Positions 5,321-63,271 of a DNA stretch of 64,000 nt are shown here, in pieces. The notes beneath the pieces were generated by a model. That model was not told the origin of the DNA. It saw nothing but the letters and a program-made list of their open reading frames with translations, and ran no database searches. Numbering within the stretch: the stretch's first letter is position 1; every line of letters begins with the position of its first letter. This DNA comes from Aeromicrobium sp. (GTDB taxonomy: Bacteria; Actinomycetota; Actinomycetes; Propionibacteriales; Nocardioidaceae): positions 106,944 to 170,943 of the forward strand of contig NZ_JASGEK010000010.1 of the NCBI RefSeq assembly GCF_047606445.1, given 5' to 3'. Position numbers and translations under genes: made by a program.

Positions 5321-6589
5321 TCAGGCCGACGGCGGCAGGTCGGGGTAGAGCGGGAAGCGCTCGGCCAGCACGGCGGTGCGCCGGCGCAGCGACTCCAGGT
5401 CGGCGCCCGGCTTGAGCGCCTCGGCGATGACGTCGGCGACCTCGGCGAACTCCTCGGCGCCGAAGCCGCGCGTGGCGAGCGCCGGGGTGCCGACGCGCAG
5501 GCCGGAGGTGACCTTCGGCGGGCGCGGGTCGTTCGGGACCGCGTTGCGGTTGACCGTGATGCCGACCTCGTGCAGCCGGTCCTCGGCCTGCTGGCCGTCG
5601 AACTCGGAGTTCCGCAGGTCGACGAGCACCAGGTGGACGTCGGTGCCGCCGGACAGCACCGCGACGCCCGCCTCGGCGACGTCGGACTGGGTCAGCCGGT
5701 CGGCGATGAGCTTGGCGCCCTCGAGGGTGCGCTGCTGGCGGTCGGCGAAACCGTCCTCCAACGCCATCTTGAAGGCGACGGCCTTCGCGGCGATGACGTG
5801 CTCCAGCGGGCCGCCCTGCTGCCCGGGGAAGACCGCCGACTGCAGCTTCTTCGGCACGTCGGGGTCGTTGCTGAGGATCGCGCCGCCGCGCGGGCCGCCG
5901 AGGGTCTTGTGCGTGGTGGTCGAGACGACGTGCGCGTGCGGCAGCGGGCTCGGGTGCAGGCCGGCGGCGACGAGACCGGCGAAGTGCGCCATGTCGACCC
6001 ACAGGTAGGCGCCCACCTCGTCGGCGATCTCACGGAAGGCGGCGAAGTCGAGCTGGCGGGGGTAGGCCGACCAGCCGGCGATGATGACCTTCGGCTGGTG
6101 CTCGCGGGCGAGCTCGCGGACCTCGTCCATGTCGACGATTCCGGCGTCGTCGACGTGGTACGGGACGACGTGGTAGAGGCGGCCGGAGAAGTTGATCTTC
6201 ATGCCGTGCGTCAGGTGGCCGCCGTTGGCGAGGTCGAGGCCGAGGATCGTGTCGCCGGCGCGCGCGATGGCGTGCAGGACCGCGGCGTTGGCGCTGGCGC
6301 CGGAGTGCGGCTGGACGTTGGCGTAGTCGGCGTCGAAGAGCTGCTTGAGCCGGTCGATGGCGATCTGCTCGACCTGGTCGACGACCTCGCAGCCGCCGTA
6401 GTACCGCGCGCCCGGGTAGCCCTCGGCGTACTTGTTCGTCAGGACGCTGCCGTTGGCCTGCAGCGAGGCGACGGGGGCGAAGTTCTCCGACGCGATCATC
6501 TCCAACGTGGTCTGCTGGCGGGCGAGCTCGGCGTCGATCAGCGCGGCGATCTCGGGATCGGCCACGGACAGGGGCGCGTTGTGGTCCAT
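5321..6589 (-). CDS. glyA: Serine hydroxymethyltransferase
   Basis: [50 protein letters not shown] site, SGLRVGTPA. Confidence 0.98.
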
Positions 6590-6641
6590 GCGCGCAAGCC
6601 TACCGGCGCTCCCCCGCCCTCCGTCCTCCGCTCGGTCCCTG

Positions 6642-6731
6642 CCAGATTTGCGCCAAGTTCAACCGAAACGTCAATGGGAAACGGTTGAACTTGGCGCAAA
6701 TCTGGGAAGAAGGTGACCCCAGGGTCAGCGG
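6642..6731 (-). repeat. REP/MITE-like palindromic element, copy 2 (inverted)
   Basis: Reverse complement reads ccgctgaccctggggtcaccttcttcccagatttgcgccaagttcaaccg-loop-cggttgaacttggcgcaaatctgg. Confidence 0.85.
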
Positions 6732-7453
6732 GGGCGGGCGGCGGCGACGGTGCGGGCGCGGTGCTCGACGGTGTCGTCGAGGTCGCCGGGGGTGAAGGAG
6801 CCGTGACGACGGACCACGGCCCGCTCGATGAGGAAGTCGGCGACGAGCGGATTCTTCGGCAGCAGCGAGCCGTGCAGGTAGCTGCCGACGACGTTGCGGT
6901 GGCGCACGCCCTCGGTGCCGTCCTCGCCGTTGTTGCCCGCCCCGGCCAGGACCCGGCCGAACGGCGTGGCGCCCGCGCCGAGATAGGTCTTCCCGCTGTG
7001 GTTCTCGTAACCGATGACCTGCCCGAACTCGGACGATTCCGTGACGATATTGCCGATCAGCCGCTCCTGGCCGCCGATCGTCTCGATGTCGAGCAGGCCG
7101 ATCCCCTCGATCATCTCGCCCTCCAGAGTCCGGAAGAAGCGACCGAACAATTGGTACAGCCCACAGATCGCGAGCATCGGCACGTCGTCCTCGGCCCACT
7201 CGCGCAGCCGGGGGCCGATGGCGCGCAGGTCAGTCTGGATGACGCCCTGGCCGGAGTCCTGCCCCCCGCCGCCGACGACGAGGTCGACGTCCTCGGGGAA
7301 GGCCTCGCCGGGGTCGTAGCCGACGACGACCGGCGTGTAGCCGTGCCACTCCAGGCGGCGGCTCAGCGTGAGGACGTTGCCCCAGTCGCCGTAGATGTTC
7401 ATATCGCGCGGGTACAGCTGCAGGATCGTGACCGCGCCCTTGCTCTCGCTCAT
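6725..7453 (-). CDS. gatD: CobQ-like glutamine amidotransferase (GatD)
   Basis: LYPRDMNIYGDWGN, GGGQDSGQ, LAICGLYQLFG, GYENHSG, GSYLHGSLLPKN. Confidence 0.92.
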   Translation of the reverse strand: MSESKGAVTILQLYPRDMNIYGDWGNVLTLSRRLEWHGYTPVVVGYDPGEAFPEDVDLVVGGGGQDSGQGVIQTDLRAIGPRLREWAEDDVPMLAICGLYQLFGRFFRTLEGEMIEGIGLLDIETIGGQERLIGNIVTESSEFGQVIGYENHSGKTYLGAGATPFGRVLAGAGNNGEDGTEGVRHRNVVGSYLHGSLLPKNPLVADFLIERAVVRRHGSFTPGDLDDTVEHRARTVAAARPR

Positions 7454-8751
7454 GCCACCTCCTCCACGTCGGTGATCCGGGCGAGCTCTTTGCGCAAGGC
7501 GAGCATCGCGGTGTAGGTGGTGAAGATCCGTTTCGGCGCGTCAGCGTGCTCGCGCAGGAAGGCGCGCAGCGCGTCGGCGAGGTCGGGCTCGACGGCCGCC
7601 ACCGGGACGTCGTCGTACTTCAACCGCAGCGCCATGTCCCAGGCGCGCGTGCCGGTGACCTGCGCGACCCCCGTCTCCCGCAGCGCCTCGAAGGAGACGT
7701 CCCACAGCCAGCTCATATCGCGACCGTCGGCGTACTGGTCGTTGATCGCGATCATCGTCGCGTGGCCCTCGGAGGGGAAGGACGCCAGGCTCAGCCGGAA
7801 GCCCGCCGGATTCTTGACGAGCACCAACTCCACCGGCTGCCCGTCGACCTCCACCTGCTCGCCGCGGCCGAAGGCGGGCGTGACCTGCGACAGCGCGGTC
7901 AACAGCGCGGGCCCGTCGAGCCGGTCGCCGGCGACCTGGCGCACCAGCGCGAGCGCGGCGGCGGCGTTGAAGACGTTGTGGACGCCGCGCAGCGCGAGGT
8001 CGACCTCGACCAGGCGGCCCTCAATGACGAAGCTCCCCCGGTCGCCCTCGACTCCGGCCAGCTCGACGTCGGCCGCGCGCGTCGGCTCGGCGGCCGGCGA
8101 CGGACCGCTGTGCAGGTCGTTGTCGCTGGGGAAGATGTGCGCGAGCGACGGGTCGAAGCCGAACCAGGCGACGTCCCGCCCGGCCACATGGTCGGCCAGC
8201 GCGGCGACCCGAGGGTCCTCGCGGTTGAGCACGACGCCGTCGGTGGTGGCCTCGGCGATGGCCTGGAGCATGCGCGCGGTCGTGTCGATCTCGCCGAAGC
8301 GGTCGAGCTGGTCGCGCATGACGTTGAGCAGCAGGCTGTGGCGCGGCCGGACGAGTTTGACGAAGTGGACCGCGTGGGCCTCGTCGAGCTCCAGCACCGC
8401 GATGTCGGCGTCGAGACGGCCTTTGAAGTCGACCTCGGCGACGAGCGCCGCCGCCACGCCGCGCACGAAGTTGCTGCCGGTGCGGTTGGTGAACACCTTC
8501 AAGCCCTGGCTCTGGAGGAGTTCGGTGACCATCTTGGTGGTGGTGGTCTTGCCGTTCGTGCCGCTGACGACGACCACGCCGCGTGGCAGCTGGGCGAGCA
8601 CCGACGGGACGAAGCCGGGGTCGCGGCGCTCGATGACCAGGCCGGGCAGCGCTGAGCCACCGCCGCGCAGCCGGGCGAGCGCGCGCACGAGCTTGCCCAC
8701 CACGATGGTCGAACGCCTCACCGCGGGCCGTCGTTCAGGCAACGTCGTCAC
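7450..8751 (-). CDS. murT: MurT-type Mur ligase (lipid II isoglutamyl amidation)
   Basis: VSGTNGKTTTT, NRTGSN, LELDEA, LNVMRDQLDRFGE, LVKNPAGF, ADGRDMSWLWDV (DUF1727); coupled to gatD. Confidence 0.92.
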   Translation of the reverse strand: MTTLPERRPAVRRSTIVVGKLVRALARLRGGGSALPGLVIERRDPGFVPSVLAQLPRGVVVVSGTNGKTTTTKMVTELLQSQGLKVFTNRTGSNFVRGVAAALVAEVDFKGRLDADIAVLELDEAHAVHFVKLVRPRHSLLLNVMRDQLDRFGEIDTTARMLQAIAEATTDGVVLNREDPRVAALADHVAGRDVAWFGFDPSLAHIFPSDNDLHSGPSPAAEPTRAADVELAGVEGDRGSFVIEGRLVEVDLALRGVHNVFNAAAALALVRQVAGDRLDGPALLTALSQVTPAFGRGEQVEVDGQPVELVLVKNPAGFRLSLASFPSEGHATMIAINDQYADGRDMSWLWDVSFEALRETGVAQVTGTRAWDMALRLKYDDVPVAAVEPDLADALRAFLREHADAPKRIFTTYTAMLALRKELARITDVEEVA

Positions 8752-8795
8752 CCTGCGAGCCTACGGGACCAGGCGCGTGAATGACACCTGTGTAG

Positions 8796-9112
8796 TTATC
8801 CCCAGGTCTGTGCACAACCTGGGGATAAACCTGGGCGCCTGATGTGGAACGACCAGACGACTGATCGTATGGCCGTCGTCGTTCATTCACAGGCTCCTCC
8901 CCCACCCTCGTCTGCCTGCTCGTGAGACGGCATCGGGTGACAGGTGTCCGCCGACCCTGGAATACCAGCCGTCATCACGAAATGTCCGAGGCCTCCGCTA
9001 ACCTGGCGCGGGCTTCTCGCAGGCCCGTCGACCACGAATGACCGTCGCGTAATCACACCGATGTAGTTTTCCCCAGACGTGTCCACAGACTGTGGGTAAC
9101 GCTGTGTCCACA
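8796..9112. promoter_or_regulatory. DnaA-box cluster 2 (off-origin)
   Basis: TTATCCCCA 8796, CTGTGCACA 8808, TGGGGATAA 8820, TCATTCACA 8883, TTTTCCCCA 9067, GTGTCCACA 9079, TGTGGGTAA 9091, GTGTCCACA 9104. Confidence 0.7.
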
Positions 9113-9122
9113 GGAGGCCGCC

Positions 9123-10163
9123 ATGCCCACTGGCTCACCCGCCCACCGTCGTGGCCGTGCGATGCTCGTCACAATGCTGCTCGTCGTCGGCCTCCTGGCG
9201 AGTTGCTCCAGCGACGACAGCCCTCCGCCACCGGCCGACCCCCTCACGCTGGCTCCCGGCTCCTGCCTCTCCGACACGACGGCGAACCACGCCGGAACCG
9301 TCGACGCCGACCTCGAATCGCTCGTTCCCTGCACTGAGCCACACCTGTTCCTGGTCTACGAGGTCGCCGACCTCGACCTGGCCGAGCTCGGACTCGGCGA
9401 CCTCGACGCCGAGCAGATCGCCGAGACCCGAGCGACACTTCAAGACGTCACCTCGGAACTGGGCCAAGCTCTGACGACGCTGGCCACCGCCACCTGCCGC
9501 TCCTCGCTGAGCGCCGCCGTCGGTTTCGACGGAGCCGCCCTCGACGCGCTCGCCGTCCCCGTGGGCTCCTTCGCCCACGACGTCACCTTGACCAGCGAGG
9601 AGGACTGGACGGACGGGAAGCCGGGATTCGTCTGCTCGCTGTCGTGGCGGACCGGCGAGGACTTCACCGAGCGCACCGAGGTCACGCTGCCGGAAGGGGT
9701 GACCCTCGCCGATTGGTTCAGCGACGATTTCCCCACGGAGACACGCCGTTGCGAGGCGACGCCCGACGGCGCGCCCACCCCGTGCGACGACCCTCACTGG
9801 CGGCAGACCGCAGTGTCGGTCAACGCGAACGCCGTACTCGCCGCCGAGACGGTACAGTCGCTCCGCGATTCTCTGTCGTACCAAGGGGTCTGGTCGCCCG
9901 AGGCCGCCGCCGCGGTCGACCAGGTGTGCGCGAGCTTCCTGCCGATCGCGCTCGGAGACGACAACGACGCGTTGGCCGCCCGCGGCGACCTCGGCTCCCA
10001 AGGCTGGGCCGACCTCGGCGGCACGACCTCCGTCCTGCCCGGATTCGACGAGTTGGTCTGCGGCGTCACCGCGACCGACTCGGCCGGTCTCAACCTCGTC
10101 GGCGACGTCTTCGGCTCCGGCTCCGCGGCCCCGACCACCGAACCCGTCAGCCCCGGCATGTGA
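9123..10163 (+). CDS. Lipoprotein with two septum-formation-like Cys/His repeats
   Basis: Lipobox LASC; repeats VPCTEPHLFLVY and TPCDDPHWRQT, each followed by C...W...C patterns. Confidence 0.65.
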   Translation: MPTGSPAHRRGRAMLVTMLLVVGLLASCSSDDSPPPPADPLTLAPGSCLSDTTANHAGTVDADLESLVPCTEPHLFLVYEVADLDLAELGLGDLDAEQIAETRATLQDVTSELGQALTTLATATCRSSLSAAVGFDGAALDALAVPVGSFAHDVTLTSEEDWTDGKPGFVCSLSWRTGEDFTERTEVTLPEGVTLADWFSDDFPTETRRCEATPDGAPTPCDDPHWRQTAVSVNANAVLAAETVQSLRDSLSYQGVWSPEAAAAVDQVCASFLPIALGDDNDALAARGDLGSQGWADLGGTTSVLPGFDELVCGVTATDSAGLNLVGDVFGSGSAAPTTEPVSPGM

Positions 10164-56926: not shown

Positions 56927-57682
56927 TCAGATCAGCTTGCGCGCCACGGGACGCGGGGCGTGCTTGAGGACCTGGCCGAGCGGGACCCAGGGCCAGGCTG
57001 GGACGGCGGCGTTGTCGACCTCTTTGTCGATGGCCTTGACCATCGCGCGCACGCCGGTCGCGGTGTCGACCATGAGCTTCTGCTCCTGCTCGACCTTCTC
57101 GTTCATCTCCGAGGCGATGTAGCCGGGATAGATCGTGGTGACCAAGATGTCGAGGCCCCGGCCGACCAGGTCCATGCGGATGCCTTCGGCCAGATGCGCG
57201 ATGCCCGCTTTCGTCGCGGCGTAGGCGGCCATGCTCGACGGCATGCCGCGCATGGCCGACACCGACGAGATCACCACGAGGTGACCGGACTTCTTCGCGT
57301 AGAAGTGCTCCATCGCGGCCTCGCACTGGGCCATCGCGGCGATGAAGTTCGTCTCGGCGGTCTGCTTGTTGGCGTGGAACTTGCCGGTGCCGATCCGTCC
57401 GCCCTTGCCGAGGCCGGCGTTGACGATCACCCGGTCGAGGCCGCCCAGCTCGTCGGCGGCTTCCTTGACGACGGCGAAGACCTGGTCGTGGTCGTTGACG
57501 TCGAGCTGGCGGACGACCACCTCGACGTCGGGGTGCGCGGCGACGATCTCGGCGCGCAGCTCCTCCAGCCGGTCGAGACGGCGCGCGGTGAGGGCGAGCG
57601 AGTGGCCCTTCGCGGCGAACTGACGGGCCATCTCCGCGCCGAGGCCGGAGCTCGCGCCGGTGATGAGGATGTTCGTGCGCAT
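56927..57682 (-). CDS. Short-chain dehydrogenase/reductase
   Basis: ITGASSGLG, NAGLG, SSVSA, YAATK. Confidence 0.93.
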   Translation of the reverse strand: MRTNILITGASSGLGAEMARQFAAKGHSLALTARRLDRLEELRAEIVAAHPDVEVVVRQLDVNDHDQVFAVVKEAADELGGLDRVIVNAGLGKGGRIGTGKFHANKQTAETNFIAAMAQCEAAMEHFYAKKSGHLVVISSVSAMRGMPSSMAAYAATKAGIAHLAEGIRMDLVGRGLDILVTTIYPGYIASEMNEKVEQEQKLMVDTATGVRAMVKAIDKEVDNAAVPAWPWVPLGQVLKHAPRPVARKLI

Positions 57683-57683
57683 G

Positions 57684-58481
57684 TCAGTCCTTCTTCGCCA
57701 TCTTCGCGGCGGCCTTGAGCATCTCGCGGGTGTACAGGGGGCGCAGCCAGCGCTTCGCCGCGTAGGCGATCGTGCCATTGCGGTCGGTCGTGATGACGTG
57801 CACGCCCTTCTCCATCTTGCGCAGCGTGGCCGCGGCGATGTCGTCGGCGGTGACCTTCGACCGGTCGATGAGCTTGGCGGCGAGTTGTCGCGACGACTCG
57901 TCCTTGCCGCGCAGCGACTCGGCGAGGTTCGTCTTGAAGAAGGTCGGGCAGATCACCGACACCTTCACGCCGAAGGGGTCCAGCTCATAACTCAGCGACT
58001 CGCTCAGCGCGACGACGCCCGCCTTCACCGCGACGTACTCGGTCATGCGAGGCGGGTGGACGAGCCCGGCGGCCGAGGCGGTGTTGACGATGTGGCCGCT
58101 GCCCGCCTCCTTCATCATCGGCGTGAACTGTCGGCAGCCGCGTGCCACGCCGAGCAGGTTGATGTCGACGATCCACTGCCACTGGTCCATCTCGGTCAGC
58201 TCGATCCGGCCGCCCGCCGCGACGCCCGCGTTGTTGAACAGGTAGTCCAGGCCGCCCCAGGTCTCGACCACCCAGTCGTGCGCGGTCTGCCAGTCGACGT
58301 CGGAGGTGACGTCGAGGCGGCGGTACTCGACGTCGAGCCCGTCGAGGGAGTCGGGGCGCTCCTGGTGGACGTCGGTGGCGAGCACGCGCACACCCTTGTC
58401 GCGAAGCTGCCGGACCAGCGCCAGGCCGAGCCCAGAGGCCCCGCCGGTCACCAGCGCACGGGAGCCGGAAGTGATCTGCAT
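57684..58481 (-). CDS. Short-chain dehydrogenase/reductase
   Basis: VTGGASGLG, NNAGVA, NTASAAG, YVAVK. Confidence 0.93.
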   Translation of the reverse strand: MQITSGSRALVTGGASGLGLALVRQLRDKGVRVLATDVHQERPDSLDGLDVEYRRLDVTSDVDWQTAHDWVVETWGGLDYLFNNAGVAAGGRIELTEMDQWQWIVDINLLGVARGCRQFTPMMKEAGSGHIVNTASAAGLVHPPRMTEYVAVKAGVVALSESLSYELDPFGVKVSVICPTFFKTNLAESLRGKDESSRQLAAKLIDRSKVTADDIAAATLRKMEKGVHVITTDRNGTIAYAAKRWLRPLYTREMLKAAAKMAKKD

Positions 58482-58541
58482 TTTTCAGATACTACCGGTA
58501 TCTGAAAGTTTCACCCCCGGTGACACGTCACAACTGCCACG

Positions 58542-61238
58542 ATGGTCGACATGCCCCTCCTCAGCTCGCTGCTCTCCGCCCGTCAGGTCACCGATGAGTC
58601 CGACACGCTCGACCTCGTCCGATTGATCGGCCCGATCCTCCATGAGAAGAACTACCCCGCTCTCGCAGGCGCTGTCCGCAGCTGTCTGGCGACCGTGGCG
58701 CCGGGCTCGGTCCCCGCGACTGTCATGGACTGGTGGGTGAAGGTCGTGACCGGCGAGTCGGCCAACGGGTCGTGCTACCAGCTGCCCGCCGACATCCGCG
58801 GCGATCTCGCCGATGCCATGACCGCGTTGCGGGACATCCACTCCGATATCGCGCCCTGGAGGTGGCTCAGCGCGCGGAGCACCGTCGCTAAGGGCCGCGC
58901 GTTGATCGAGCCCGGAACGAAGGGTCCGTTGAGTATGGACTACTACGGGAACTCGCGCATCCCGAAAGAACGAGCTGCCTGGGATCAGTTCATCGAGTTG
59001 TTCGAGCCGCACATCAGCGCGTTGCGATCGGGTCGTCCGGGTCCGGAGATCGCCGATATCGAAGACGATGTCAAGCGCATTCTCATCGCCAGCGACATCA
59101 TCGAGAACTCCGATCGTTGGAAGGCCATCAAATACCGGGTGCAGCAGATGGCGGACTTCCTCTACGATCTGCGCGAGGAGACGCAGATCTGGCTGTCGCA
59201 CACCCCCGACGTCGATGTGCCAGTCCTGCGGGAGGTCCCCGAGGAGATGCGCGATCTGCTGGGCGACAGCGCCGATGTCTTGTTGTTCCCGGTACTGGTC
59301 GATCCTCCTCGGCCTGCGGACCTGGAGTCGACGCTCGACGCCGAACTGGAGCGACTCGACACGGGGAGCCGACATCAAGTGGCGCTCCTGCTACGCCCCT
59401 GGGTCGACGAACGGTACGACCTCTACGCCGCGGCGCCGGCGCTGCCCGCGATTTCGGAGGCGTTGCATCAGATCCCGCAGATCGAGTCGCAGATCGAGGA
59501 GCTCCGACAGGCTGACCTCGACAGCGAGGCGATCGACGAGATCGAGTTGTACTTCCTCGAGGGCGACTTCGACCACGCGCACGAGCTCATCGGTCAACAT
59601 CAGGGCGACAAGGAGATCGAGCTGTCCACACGTCGGTGGCAGAGCGAGATCGACGCCGCTCTCCACCGTGCGGAACGAGTCGGCGTCGAGGACGCGGATC
59701 TACGATCGCTGCGAGACGACATCGCGACCTTGCTGGTCGACGGCCGGGAGTCGACCCTGCGAGAGGGGGTGCGCGAGGCCGGAGAACGGCTGGAGAACCA
59801 GGTCGCCAGACTCCGGCGGGAGGAGTTCCAACGTCACGTCAAGACCCTCGAGACGTTGGGGACGACGAAGGAGCGCGTCTACGACCTCAACAATGAGGCG
59901 AAAGCCACGATCACGCGCAGTCGGCTGGAAGAGATGGAGCGTCAGGTCGCCAACTTGCGAGACGACCGCGTCGAGGAGGTGCGACGTACCCGAGAGCGGG
60001 TCGCCGACGCACTCTCGGACCCCTCGATCGACGAGGACCGGCGGGCCGAGCTACGGCAGTCGGCGCCGCCGATCGTCGACCGTGACTCCACCGACGTGGA
60101 GATCATGGCCACGCACGCGGGGTTGTTGGCCTTGGAGGCGGAGATCAACAAGCTGATCACCCGCCGATGGATTCCAGACCGTCACTCCGAAGGCGAGTTG
60201 CTCGGCCACCTCATCAAATACTGCACGGAGCGCATCGACTACGACGAGAACGACCTGAAACGGCTGTTCGTGGCGCTCAAGACCAAGCCTTTCGTCATCC
60301 TCGCCGGGTTGACGGGATCGGGCAAGAGCAGCATCGCGCGCCTGGTCGCGGAGGCCTTCGGCTCGTCGGCGGCCAACGGACGTTTCCGTCGGATCGCGGT
60401 GCGGCCGGACTGGATCGACCAGTCCGACGTCCTCGGCTACATCAACCCGATGTCGGGGGATTTCGAACCGGGCTGGTTGGCCGATGTGGCCCGTTCCTGC
60501 CAGGCGAACCCCGACGACCTGTTCTTCGTCCTCCTCGACGAGATGAACCTCGCGCCGGTCGAGCAGTACCTCGCGGAGTTCCTCTCGGCGATGGAGTCGG
60601 TCCGCGCGGGCTTCGACGATGTGACGCTGCCGCTCTACACCCGGGGCGCGAAGCCGAGGAACGCGCAGCAGTGGCCGGCCGAGTTGCGTTTCCCGACGAA
60701 CCTCTTCGTCATCGGCACAGTGAACGTCGACGAGACCACGAGGCCGCTCTCGGACCGGGTGATCGATCGGGCGAACCTTCTCCAGCTCAAGCTCCGATGG
60801 TCGCGCGGTCACCACGAGGCGGAGGACACGAAGGAGACCCAGCCGTGGGTGGTCGACAGTGACGCGTGGCGTGCCTTGGTCAAAGTCGAGCCGTCCTCGG
60901 AGCATCACGACATCCTCGTCGGGTTCGCCGAGATGCTGGAGCTGGTGGGCATCGGCGTCGGGTTGCGATCCCACGTCGAGATCGAGCGGTTCCTCGCCAA
61001 CGCCGAGGACATCCTGGAGTCGCACGTCGCGCTCGACATGGGCGTCCTCCAGCGCATCATCCCGAAGGTGCGCGGCTTCAAGCGCGAGCTGACGCCTGCC
61101 CTGGAGGCAATGCGGGAAGCGTTGGTCGCCGAGAAGTGCGGTGAGTCGCTGGCGGTCGTCGACCGGTGGCTCGATCCGTCAGTGTCCGACGACGCCTACA
61201 TCGACGGCACCGCTCCGCACATCGGGATCCCGCGCTGA
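58542..61238 (+). CDS. McrB-like AAA+ GTPase with long helical N-terminus
   Basis: KPFVILAGLTGSGKSS Walker A, IAVRPDW, FVLLDEMNLAPVEQYLAEFLSAME Walker B, GTVNVDETT (NxD) and LSDRVIDRA. Confidence 0.9.
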   Translation: MVDMPLLSSLLSARQVTDESDTLDLVRLIGPILHEKNYPALAGAVRSCLATVAPGSVPATVMDWWVKVVTGESANGSCYQLPADIRGDLADAMTALRDIHSDIAPWRWLSARSTVAKGRALIEPGTKGPLSMDYYGNSRIPKERAAWDQFIELFEPHISALRSGRPGPEIADIEDDVKRILIASDIIENSDRWKAIKYRVQQMADFLYDLREETQIWLSHTPDVDVPVLREVPEEMRDLLGDSADVLLFPVLVDPPRPADLESTLDAELERLDTGSRHQVALLLRPWVDERYDLYAAAPALPAISEALHQIPQIESQIEELRQADLDSEAIDEIELYFLEGDFDHAHELIGQHQGDKEIELSTRRWQSEIDAALHRAERVGVEDADLRSLRDDIATLLVDGRESTLREGVREAGERLENQVARLRREEFQRHVKTLETLGTTKERVYDLNNEAKATITRSRLEEMERQVANLRDDRVEEVRRTRERVADALSDPSIDEDRRAELRQSAPPIVDRDSTDVEIMATHAGLLALEAEINKLITRRWIPDRHSEGELLGHLIKYCTERIDYDENDLKRLFVALKTKPFVILAGLTGSGKSSIARLVAEAFGSSAANGRFRRIAVRPDWIDQSDVLGYINPMSGDFEPGWLADVARSCQANPDDLFFVLLDEMNLAPVEQYLAEFLSAMESVRAGFDDVTLPLYTRGAKPRNAQQWPAELRFPTNLFVIGTVNVDETTRPLSDRVIDRANLLQLKLRWSRGHHEAEDTKETQPWVVDSDAWRALVKVEPSSEHHDILVGFAEMLELVGIGVGLRSHVEIERFLANAEDILESHVALDMGVLQRIIPKVRGFKRELTPALEAMREALVAEKCGESLAVVDRWLDPSVSDDAYIDGTAPHIGIPR

Positions 61239-62623
61239 TGGCGCAGATCTTCGGCGCTCAACGGTGGCACAGGCTGGCCTCGGACCAGCCTCCGGCGCAG
61301 ATCGGGGAGAGCGACCTGTTCCGCCTGCGCGGTGTGGAGGCGAACGCGACCGTCACCCTCGGCGACCAGATCGACGTCACCGCGAGCAACCGGGGCGACG
61401 TCTCGTTCAAGCTGCGCGACTTCGACGATTTGCGCGGGCACATCGGGCTGATCTCCGTGAGCGTCGAGGGTGTTCCGCTCGGCGAGATCGACGTCGTGCC
61501 CGACAAGATGAGCCAGGACGCCTACCGTCGGCTGCGGGCTGACGTCGAGACGGTGTGGACCGGTCTGACGCTCGACCCGGAGGCGCTCTCCCATTTGGAG
61601 GCAGGGCCGCCGCCGCCAGCCGACCTGTGGAAGGAGATCGAAGGCGTTGTCCGGCAGATCGCGGCGCAGCCGCACGAGGAGTTGCGCGACACTGTCGGAT
61701 ACCGATCCTCGTTGCGGGTCCGACACCGGCGGGAGTTGACGGCGGCGACGTTACGGGCGTTGCCCCGTGGCGGAAGCGCTCTCGTCCGGGTCGTCGAACG
61801 GACGGCGATGACGGCCGACAACGCCATGGTCGCCGACACGCTGCGGCGGATCAGGGCGTACGCGCTGCGTCGCGGTGACGCCGCCGTCGCCTCCTATGCG
61901 GCTCGGTGGCTCTCGGTGGAGCCGTTCTGCGACCTCCGGCCGGGCGGTTTCGCCGGGTCGAGCTATGTGCTCGACCAGCGGTACCGGCAGGTGCAGCGGG
62001 TACGTCGCCTGTTGACGCGACCGGACCTCGCACCGGTGGAGGGACCCGGCGAGATCCGTCTGGGTGTTCGTGGTTTGAGCCGACTGTACGAGTACTGGGT
62101 GTTCTTGCAGGTGCTCCTTCAAGCGCGTGAGAAGTACGGAGATCCGATAGCCGGCGGATTCAGTGTGCTGCGCGCCGAGACTGCTCGGGGGCCGCGCATC
62201 GACATCCCCGCAGGCGCGACCGTGAGATTCCCCGGCGACATCAGGGTCGCTTTCGAGCCGTGCGTCACGACCCGACCGGCGGACAGCTGGGCGGGGATCG
62301 AGTATGTGCGGCACCCCGACCCGGAGCGGGCACAGGGGCGGGCGACGCCTGACGTGGTGGTGCTGCGTGGCGGCGTGCGGCCCGAGCTGTTGATCATCGA
62401 CGCGAAGTACGTCGGCCAAGTCTTCGTGGAAAAGGACGCGGTGAAGATCCACGACAAGTACGCGCGCATGCTTCTCGGTCAGACGCCGGTCGTCTCCCAG
62501 GTCGTGGCCGTGCATCCGCATCACCGTTTGGCGGCGCGTCATTGGGCGGGATACGGACACATGCCGATGAACCCCGAGGCGGGTGTCGCGCGGTTGCCGT
62601 TGCCGGACCTTGTGAAGACGTGA
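61238..62623 (+). CDS. McrC-like DUF2357 / PD-(D/E)xK nuclease
   Basis: Beta-rich N-terminus, VVPDKM, T.DNAMVA, YRQVQR, LSRLYEYWVFLQV, TPDVVV...IIDAKY. ATG overlaps the McrB stop (TGATG). Confidence 0.88.
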   Translation: MAQIFGAQRWHRLASDQPPAQIGESDLFRLRGVEANATVTLGDQIDVTASNRGDVSFKLRDFDDLRGHIGLISVSVEGVPLGEIDVVPDKMSQDAYRRLRADVETVWTGLTLDPEALSHLEAGPPPPADLWKEIEGVVRQIAAQPHEELRDTVGYRSSLRVRHRRELTAATLRALPRGGSALVRVVERTAMTADNAMVADTLRRIRAYALRRGDAAVASYAARWLSVEPFCDLRPGGFAGSSYVLDQRYRQVQRVRRLLTRPDLAPVEGPGEIRLGVRGLSRLYEYWVFLQVLLQAREKYGDPIAGGFSVLRAETARGPRIDIPAGATVRFPGDIRVAFEPCVTTRPADSWAGIEYVRHPDPERAQGRATPDVVVLRGGVRPELLIIDAKYVGQVFVEKDAVKIHDKYARMLLGQTPVVSQVVAVHPHHRLAARHWAGYGHMPMNPEAGVARLPLPDLVKT

Positions 62624-62629
62624 ATGCCG

Positions 62630-63271
62630 TCAGCGGAAGGTGACCGAGTCCCGAGGAATGTGTGAGTGCTCGTTGAAGGTGAGCAGTCGCGTGCCGCCGC
62701 GGCCGACCATGAGGGTGGTGACGGAGGCGTTGACGACGACCCGGTTGAGCGTGATGAACAGCGAGGCGTCGCCGGCCAGCAGGTGGGAGGCGACGAGCGC
62801 GATGGGGCCGCCGGAGGTGAACACCGCGACGTGCTGGCCCGACCCGGCGCCGCGGACGGCGGCGTCGAGCGAGCCGAGCACCCGCTCGGAGAACTGGGCG
62901 AAGCTCTCCCCGTCGGCGCTCGCCTCCCCTGCGACCCACCGTTCCAGCGCCGCGTCGAGCAACGCTTGGAACTCTTTGGCGTCGGCGGGCCGGTCGGCCG
63001 CGTCGCTCATCTGGACCAGCGCGAGATGGTCGTACTCGTTCCACCCGGCGTTCACGTCGTAAAGGTCGCCGTCGATCGCGTCGATCGCGCCGACGGCGGT
63101 CTGCGCGTGACGCCTCATCGAGCCGGCCACCGACCACGTCGGCCGCAGCCCCCCGGCCTCCCACGCCAGCCCGACCCAACTGGCCTGACGTTGGCCGAGA
63201 TCGCTCAACTGGTCGTAGTCGTCGGATGCCCACGAGGCCTGCCCGTGCCGGATCAGCGAGATAGCGCCCAC
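62630..63271 (-). CDS. Histidine phosphatase family protein
   Basis: LIRHGQAS, GSMRRH, WNEYD, AVFTSGG, TFNEHSH. Confidence 0.92.
   Translation of the reverse strand: MGAISLIRHGQASWASDDYDQLSDLGQRQASWVGLAWEAGGLRPTWSVAGSMRRHAQTAVGAIDAIDGDLYDVNAGWNEYDHLALVQMSDAADRPADAKEFQALLDAALERWVAGEASADGESFAQFSERVLGSLDAAVRGAGSGQHVAVFTSGGPIALVASHLLAGDASLFITLNRVVVNASVTTLMVGRGGTRLLTFNEHSHIPRDSVTFR

Follow-up and report, generated by a model that had tools for sequence, protein, structure and literature searches.

The 64,000-nucleotide stretch of Aeromicrobium sp. DNA analysed here (contig NZ_JASGEK010000010.1, positions 106,944 to 170,943; hereafter the window) carries two overlapping genes, at 58542-62623, for an McrB-like AAA+ nucleoside triphosphatase (NTPase) and an McrC-like nuclease. 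McrBC is the textbook modification-dependent restriction system. The evidence presented below argues that the window pair stands on its own as an McrBC-like module of the NxD type gained by horizontal transfer, and that it probably serves in defence against phages or plasmids. What is new is an actinobacterial lineage of NxD McrBC with a sensor domain exclusive to it and, in relatives of the window pair, a fusion of McrC with a NYN domain. An earlier note, drawn from the sequence alone, had read the locus as an NxD-type McrBC pair; the alignment of the NxD motif, the fold of the McrB-like protein and the McrC-type partner all bear out this overall reading.

The first gene (58542-61238, plus strand) encodes a protein of 898 residues (P0001). 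An alternative ATG lies at 58551, and an 895-residue entry of the protein collection (P0003), 100% identical to the window McrB, is consistent with a start there. Residues 546-898 (60177-61235) constitute an McrB-type AAA+ module with its lid. Walker A (GLTGSGKS, residues 589-596, 60306-60329), Walker B (LLDEMN, residues 664-669, 60531-60548) and the signature N728-V-D730-E731 (60723-60734) are each invariant in 40 homologues. When the protein is aligned with E. coli McrB, the stretch GTVNVDETT faces MNTADRS and is one residue shorter, and the signature is therefore classed as NxD. All 76 aligned relatives have N-x-D followed by E, D or H, where E. coli McrB has N-T-A-D, so that the earlier statement that TVNVDET takes the place of the canonical MNTAD holds.

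Sequence libraries recognise the window McrB weakly (AAA_5, E 0.003; NCBIfam McrB, E 0.005; AAA_16, also weak), and a profile of the family searched against PDB sequences reached McrB at E 0.57 only. The fold is better seen in the AlphaFold2 model, which has a predicted local distance difference test score (pLDDT) of 87.5. McrB-family clusters of the ESM Atlas superpose on this model at about 3 Å over 340 residues, and whole-model Foldseek, VIA and Atlas searches returned AAA+ matches only. As judged from the model, residues 546-898 adopt the fold of an McrB-type AAA+ NTPase in which the nucleotide-binding motifs are all intact.

The second gene (61238-62623, plus strand, 461 residues) shares one base with the McrB stop codon in a TGATG overlap that couples the two genes translationally, in agreement with the coupling that had been proposed. 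Sequence comparison makes ATG 61238 its most likely start; the frame opened by the upstream GTG at 61166 would add 24 poorly conserved residues that are missing from the homologues. The protein has 96 homologues, two of which (P0126 and P0206) exceed the cut-off of the PD-(D/E)xK family PF04411, and one of which comes near DUF2357. Its fold was judged on a model of P0124 (pLDDT 86), the closest of the long homologues, 56% identical to it across 99% of its length. This model comprises a beta-sandwich (1-87), a mixed helical core (93-260) and a PD-(D/E)xK fold (281-445). Its best matches among solved structures are McrC chains (6ut7_G, E 1e-4; 6hz4_M, E 3e-4), and its best AlphaFold DB clusters are DUF2357 proteins that align from residue 1 (E 1e-16). 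In the window protein, the Ig-like sandwich spans approximately residues 1-87 (61238-61498), and the active site D372 ... D388-A389-K390 (62351-62407) is invariant in 25 homologues, its DAKY lining up with the DAKY of E. coli McrC. Taken on the P0124 model, the partner is of the McrC type, with an Ig-like sandwich, a DUF2357-like core and an intact PD-(D/E)xK site, much as the earlier note had described it (beta-rich N-terminus, DUF2357-like core, PD...DAK). Among the 35 loci surveyed with home-made profiles for McrC-like proteins and NYN domains, every one has an McrC-like open reading frame (ORF) directly 3' of the McrB-like gene. A third conserved gene was sought around the family loci and none was found, the neighbours differing in every locus.

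That the pair was acquired as a unit is apparent from its flanks. Two SDR genes (56927-58481, minus strand) lie on the left and a histidine phosphatase gene (62630-63271, minus strand) on the right. In the congener G007, a blastn comparison of the flanks places the histidine phosphatase and SDR genes next to each other with a single base between the homologous sequences, which identifies 58507-62629 of the window as an insertion. This cassette of 4123 bp consists of a 35-bp leader, the two genes and a 6-bp tail. Its left junction is marked by a near-perfect palindrome, TTCAGATAC-N5-GTATCTGAA (58484-58506), that belongs to the flank and not to the cassette. The palindrome precedes the SDR start codon by 2 nt, occupies the same position in the window, G007 and the congener G012, and probably serves a repressor of the SDR operon as its operator. 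It is precisely between this palindrome and the histidine phosphatase stop codon that the cassette has inserted, thereby severing the SDR genes from the gene upstream.

The same site varies among congeners: about 210 bp separate the two flanks in G012 (L005), and G017 (L010/L007, C1:932028-934038) holds approximately 2 kb of unrelated cargo, namely an LRV_2-repeat protein and ORFs without a Pfam match, with no defence gene. The GC content is 0.64-0.67 within the cassette and 0.69-0.73 outside it. No transposon-like ends, terminal repeats or target duplications were found at the cassette and no mobility genes around it. The earlier description of a clean wedge between a histidine phosphatase and two SDR genes, free of mobility genes, is thus accurate, and the empty site that the note had proposed to look for in relatives exists, with the flanks adjacent in G007 and about 210 nt apart in G012.

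The distribution of the family is patchy. Searches of 24 congeneric genomes and of 400 other genomes sampled across the phylum did not turn up the gene. In a species-level genome collection, the family occurs mainly in metagenome-assembled genomes (MAGs) of Acidimicrobiia (Ca. Aldehydirespirator, Microthrixaceae, Ilumatobacteraceae and sponge-associated Acidimicrobiaceae), with scattered carriers among Actinomycetes (Nocardioides, Actinomyces, Gordonia, Rathayibacter). Genes for type I restriction-modification, RloB with an AAA_21 ATPase, AbiJ, SNF2 with an MmeI-type methylase, Piwi with DUF4365, GmrSD_N fragments and an nSTAND ATPase, together with IS110 and DDE transposases, neighbour the homologues, a defence-island signature. 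The McrB-like proteins have also been caught by a candidate defence model: all 40 aligned family members match PDC-M26A of PADLOC (best E 5e-43). The earlier note had suggested such a PADLOC comparison. The McrB-like protein is recognised, but through the AAA+ core only (window residues 563-686 on profile positions 313-431 of 724), and the McrC-like partner is not. A literature search for PDC-M26 returned no description.

Several copies in the collection deserve a separate mention. Two loci, one in a MAG labelled Gammaproteobacteria (L022) and one in a MAG labelled Bryobacterales (L039), have an AAA+ part nearly identical to that of Acidimicrobiia copies; both MAGs are sponge-metagenome bins, and the loci may represent mis-binned contigs or recent transfer. 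In Rathayibacter rubneri (L042, NZ_JAMRYM010000012.1, ORF 6312-10118), the McrB-like ORF is 1268 residues long and runs about 350 residues past the AAA+ module, ahead of the McrC-like gene, which may reflect an extra C-terminal domain or read-through. In four Acidimicrobiia loci (L027, L030, L037 and L043), the McrB-like frame is only 411-677 residues long, or the match is spread across 3.9 kb, which suggests that these copies are frameshifted or interrupted.

The part of the McrB-like protein that precedes the motor sets the family apart. In the AlphaFold2 model, residues 1-540 are wholly helical, and all three regions of the protein are acidic, with net charges of -18 (1-300), -21 (301-545) and -17 (AAA+ module); the N-terminus of about 540 residues is thus helical and acidic, as had been noted. 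The model does not, however, bear out the single helical, coiled-coil region that had been described, but splits it into two parts. Residues 1-300 (58542-59441) form a compact, all-helical globular domain, most of it modelled with a pLDDT above 90, which is the presumed sensor. Residues 301-545 (59442-60176) form an acidic stalk or bundle whose helices measure 9-37 residues (DSSP on the model). Only one stretch of the latter, 398-426 (29 residues), passes a home-made heptad score. It represents 12% of the region, compared with 61% in a Type I-A CnuB control and 4 ± 7% in shuffled sequences. The heptad-like runs that had been pointed out are therefore real but weak, and 'helical stalk or bundle' is a safer description than 'coiled coil', since the heptad regularity is no better than that of shuffles. 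In the profile search of the whole family against PDB sequences, the helical region drew only weak, low-complexity matches to apolipoproteins and designed helical bundles.

The identity of the window McrB to its homologues falls from 58% in the AAA+ module to 23% in the N-terminal domain and 18% in the stalk. As a sequence pattern, a fast-evolving N-terminus on a conserved motor is what one would expect of a part that confers specificity or senses a trigger. When a profile of the N-terminal domain was run against 1.84 billion representative proteins, it matched 68 clusters, nearly all of them family members of about 890-940 residues or evident fragments of such proteins, which indicates that the domain is absent from other architectures. 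Pfam found no consistent family in 31 members and, in the N-terminus of the window McrB, neither an SRA, EVE or YTH domain nor a domain of any other kind; a PDB sequence search with the domain gave no match, and an ESM Atlas search no usable one, nor did two fragment proteins searched likewise. Matches of N-terminal fragments to penicillin amidase in the Atlas shared too few features and were taken as chance. The view of the earlier note that this N-terminus holds an undescribed sensor domain and none of the SRA, EVE or YTH readers agrees with these results, the sensor role itself being presumed.

In the N-terminal domain, D63-W64-W65, W108, P233 and W287 are invariant, and W, P, G and L make up most of the conserved positions, a composition that suits a structural core and not a basic DNA-binding face. 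The net charge of the domain, -18 in the window, averages -9 over the family and is never positive among aligned members. Both features sit badly with a classical type IV modification-dependent enzyme, in which the helical domain would read a modified base or backbone, for instance through D63-W64-W65, W108 and W287, and the pair, like E. coli McrBC, would cleave phage DNA that is modified; even so, the invariant aromatics could form a binding pocket. The failure to match any reader family in Pfam or among PDB sequences likewise tells against such an enzyme, as does the lack of a reader fold in the whole-model searches, which are, however, insensitive for one domain of an 898-residue model. 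Yet specificity for DNA usually resides in the N-terminus of McrB, other McrB-family clusters include all-helical readers (the sulfur-binding domain PF26340 is one), the homologues adjoin other restriction systems, and the McrBC architecture with an intact PD-(D/E)xK site is the one that a type IV enzyme calls for. I consider this alternative somewhat unlikely.

The McrC-like proteins of the relatives bear on a second alternative. The five nearest homologues of the window protein and several others are about 600 residues long and end in an additional domain that the window protein does not have. This domain is a NYN (PIN-like) fold, fused to McrC in seven of the 35 loci, which belong to Nocardioides, Microthrixaceae, Ilumatobacteraceae, Actinomyces, Gordonia and one metagenome contig; the large Ca. 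Aldehydirespirator group has McrC without NYN. Its residues D492, D506 and D581 are conserved while the full canonical acidic set is not, and catalysis by the domain is uncertain for this reason. A literature search for McrC together with NYN found nothing, and the paper describing the CoCoNuTs does not mention NYN at all (PMC11090510). The idea that the window McrC is a truncated product of an annotation or sequence error was rejected: the protein ends where many natural forms of 460-490 residues end, and no NYN remnant lies downstream. NYN may have been lost from it in the past.

The earlier note had described the window pair as a CoCoNuT-like variant, and this alternative would make it a true CoCoNuT. 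Such a system would target RNA or the translation apparatus and act by abortive infection, as CoCoNuTs have been proposed to do, its helical region being a coiled coil and the NYN of full-length relatives an RNase. Several features fit. The NxD GTPase motifs are very like those of Type I-A CnuB, the Ig-like sandwich on McrC is also seen in CnuC (PMC11090510 section 8), the NYN fold would give tandem nucleases in seven of 35 loci that include the nearest relatives, and the two-gene layout is that of the CnuB/CnuC systems of Types I-A and I-C (PMC11090510 section 8). An Ig-like domain on McrC homologues is reported throughout the NxD clade (PMC11090510), and the features stressed as hallmarks of all CoCoNuTs are a second nuclease and domains that bind RNA or translation components (PMC11090510). 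Cold-shock, YTH, SmpB-like and Hsp70-like domains were absent from the Pfam hits of both window proteins and of 31 homologues of the N-terminal domain. The McrB model has no beta-rich domain ahead of the AAA+ module, the window pair yielded no second nuclease and no HEPN or helicase part, and the cassette contains no separate coiled-coil gene. The weak heptad regularity, the conservation of only about three of the expected acidic positions of the NYN site in relatives, and the intact PD-(D/E)xK site of the window McrC, which is lost in many CoCoNuTs, also speak against this alternative.

The position of the family was estimated with IQ-TREE on the AAA+ module (45 rows). Of the CoCoNuT types (I-A, I-B, I-C, II and III), the tree covers Type I-A only, represented by the pair of E. 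coli plasmid pYLPM4a (L107), with a CnuB that corresponds to the Type I-A protein AZU78436.1 (PMC11090510 Supplementary file 3), and by a Type I-A-like pair of Bacillus cereus (L106). The further references were a CoCoPALM-like protein of Sinorhizobium (L102) that has both a membrane helix and a coiled coil, a methylase-linked McrB with EVE and HARE-HTH domains and a DUF2357 partner from the Ca. Chlorohelix plasmid NZ_CP128401.1 (L103), a methylase-linked pair of Mycobacteroides (L104) and, as outgroup, E. coli McrB. The family forms a clade of its own (100/100) on a stem of 2.07 substitutions per site. It joins the EVE-type protein, two unassigned proteins and the CoCoPALM-like protein at 94/94, and the Type I-A pair only then, at 95/88; several branches of the tree are long. 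The safe statement, which the sequence tree allows, is that the family is a distinct lineage of the NxD branch and is not nested in Type I-A. The phylogeny that had been proposed for the GTPase thus places the protein in the NxD branch as anticipated, but outside the Type I-A references and nearer the EVE-type, methylase-linked McrB. With no such hallmarks found in the window pair either, the CoCoNuT assignment is not supported as it was worded, and I think it quite unlikely that the window pair is a true CoCoNuT, its grouping with the Type I-A references inside the NxD clade notwithstanding. Nor does the absence of helicase and HEPN partners in itself mark a new subtype, which had been suggested as a possibility, since the CoCoNuTs of Types I-A and I-C are two-gene systems already. 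As a side observation, an IS4-like element abuts the 5' end of cnuB on pYLPM4a (NZ_CP074002.1, 5098-9854) and replaces its first codons relative to the reference sequence of the paper.

A third alternative, that the genes are not for defence at all but encode a mobile NTPase and nuclease with a selfish or housekeeping role (for example in DNA repair, addiction or genome maintenance), could appeal to the metabolic genes next to the window copy and to the absence of experimental defence data for any NxD McrBC, and is very unlikely in view of the patchy distribution, the empty site in congeners, the repeated defence-island context in unrelated genomes, the fast-evolving N-terminus and the broken copies, which are typical of dispensable accessory genes.

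Several observations nevertheless weigh against a defensive NxD McrBC module. Strong overall acidity, such as that of the window McrB, is unusual for an enzyme that tracks along DNA. The window McrC-like protein has no match in Pfam, NCBIfam or PADLOC, with none for DUF2357, and the McrC-like partners of the family at large match no PADLOC model. The direct neighbours of the cassette are housekeeping genes and not defence genes, and a scan for promoters and terminators, which is uninformative for a genome of such high GC content, recognised no promoter in the 35-bp leader. A look-up of public sequencing runs returned none for the cassette. Since the whole-model searches are insensitive to residues 1-300, the model of this domain may conceal a distant version of a known reader fold. 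Finally, the NxD variant defines a large branch of McrB proteins, none of which has been characterised by experiment (Bell et al. 2024, eLife 13:RP94800, PMC11090510 section 7), so that I infer GTPase activity, ring formation and nuclease substrate alike.

By analogy with solved McrBC complexes, the defence module proposed here could work as follows. The NTPase would form a ring into which McrC plugs, thereby stimulating nucleotide hydrolysis; the fast-evolving helical domain, held on the helical stalk, would recognise the trigger; and engagement of the ligand by the N-terminus would cause the McrC nuclease to cleave nucleic acid, probably DNA. The NYN fused to McrC in close relatives may add cleavage of RNA, while the window copy would depend on its PD-(D/E)xK site alone; as for RNA targeting of the CoCoNuT kind, it is plausible in relatives that carry NYN and less so in the window copy. 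The nature of the trigger is the weakest step. Because the sensor domain is acidic, rich in tryptophan and devoid of reader-like features, I lean towards something other than simple modified DNA, for instance a phage protein or a nucleoprotein feature, with a confidence that falls just short of even. A bolder version is doubtful: in it, the acidic N-terminal domain senses a phage protein or another non-nucleic-acid trigger, so that the McrBC machine responds to a protein and not to DNA modification, the full-length relatives fire PD-(D/E)xK against DNA and NYN against RNA simultaneously, and the family is an actinobacterial lineage parallel to the CoCoNuTs yet distinct from them.

The NxD branch, CoCoNuTs included, is large and experimentally uncharacterised, and the family offers a compact, two-gene way into it. 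Its useful features are intact motor and nuclease sites, an exclusive and fast-evolving sensor domain, natural variants with and without NYN and, in relatives, an empty insertion site that permits an isogenic comparison. Identification of the trigger would reveal to what NxD McrBC systems respond and whether their substrate is DNA, RNA or both. The family turns up commonly among uncultured Acidimicrobiia, sponge-associated and freshwater lineages among them, a group for which I know of few described defence systems. Current defence annotation probably misses it, because PADLOC version 2 does not recognise the McrC partner.

Compared with known systems, the window pair stands closest in its motor to the Chlorohelix McrB. 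This protein also has NxD followed by E, its motifs LDEMNLAP, GTVNVDETT and SDRVxDRA are strongly similar, it gives the best profile score outside the family for the AAA+ part (239 bits, 38% identity), its partner is an McrC with DUF2357 and PD-(D/E)xK, and it falls in the 94/94 group of the tree. The two differ in front of and around the motor: the Chlorohelix protein carries EVE and HARE-HTH readers and adjoins an N6 DNA methylase, whereas the window McrB has the family-exclusive helical domain and no methylase neighbour. With the CoCoNuTs of Types I-A and I-C, the window pair shares a two-gene arrangement of NxD GTPase and McrC-like nuclease, a helical region N-terminal of the GTPase, the Ig-like sandwich of McrC and the lack of a helicase or HEPN partner. 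Unlike theirs, its McrB lacks cold-shock and YTH domains, a long regular coiled coil (the 12% against 61% given above) and a helical insert between Walker B and NxD, and its McrC is without a cold-shock domain, a coiled coil and a zinc ribbon. The likeness to PDC-M26 (protein A) is confined to the AAA+ core, and the partner matches no PADLOC model. The canonical EcoKMcrBC of E. coli K-12 (PDB 6hz4, 6ut6) shows marginal sequence similarity (the profile match at E 0.57): it has NxxD where the window has NxD and a 5-methylcytosine-binding domain of about 160 residues in place of the helical N-terminus of about 545, and the window McrC adds the Ig-like sandwich.

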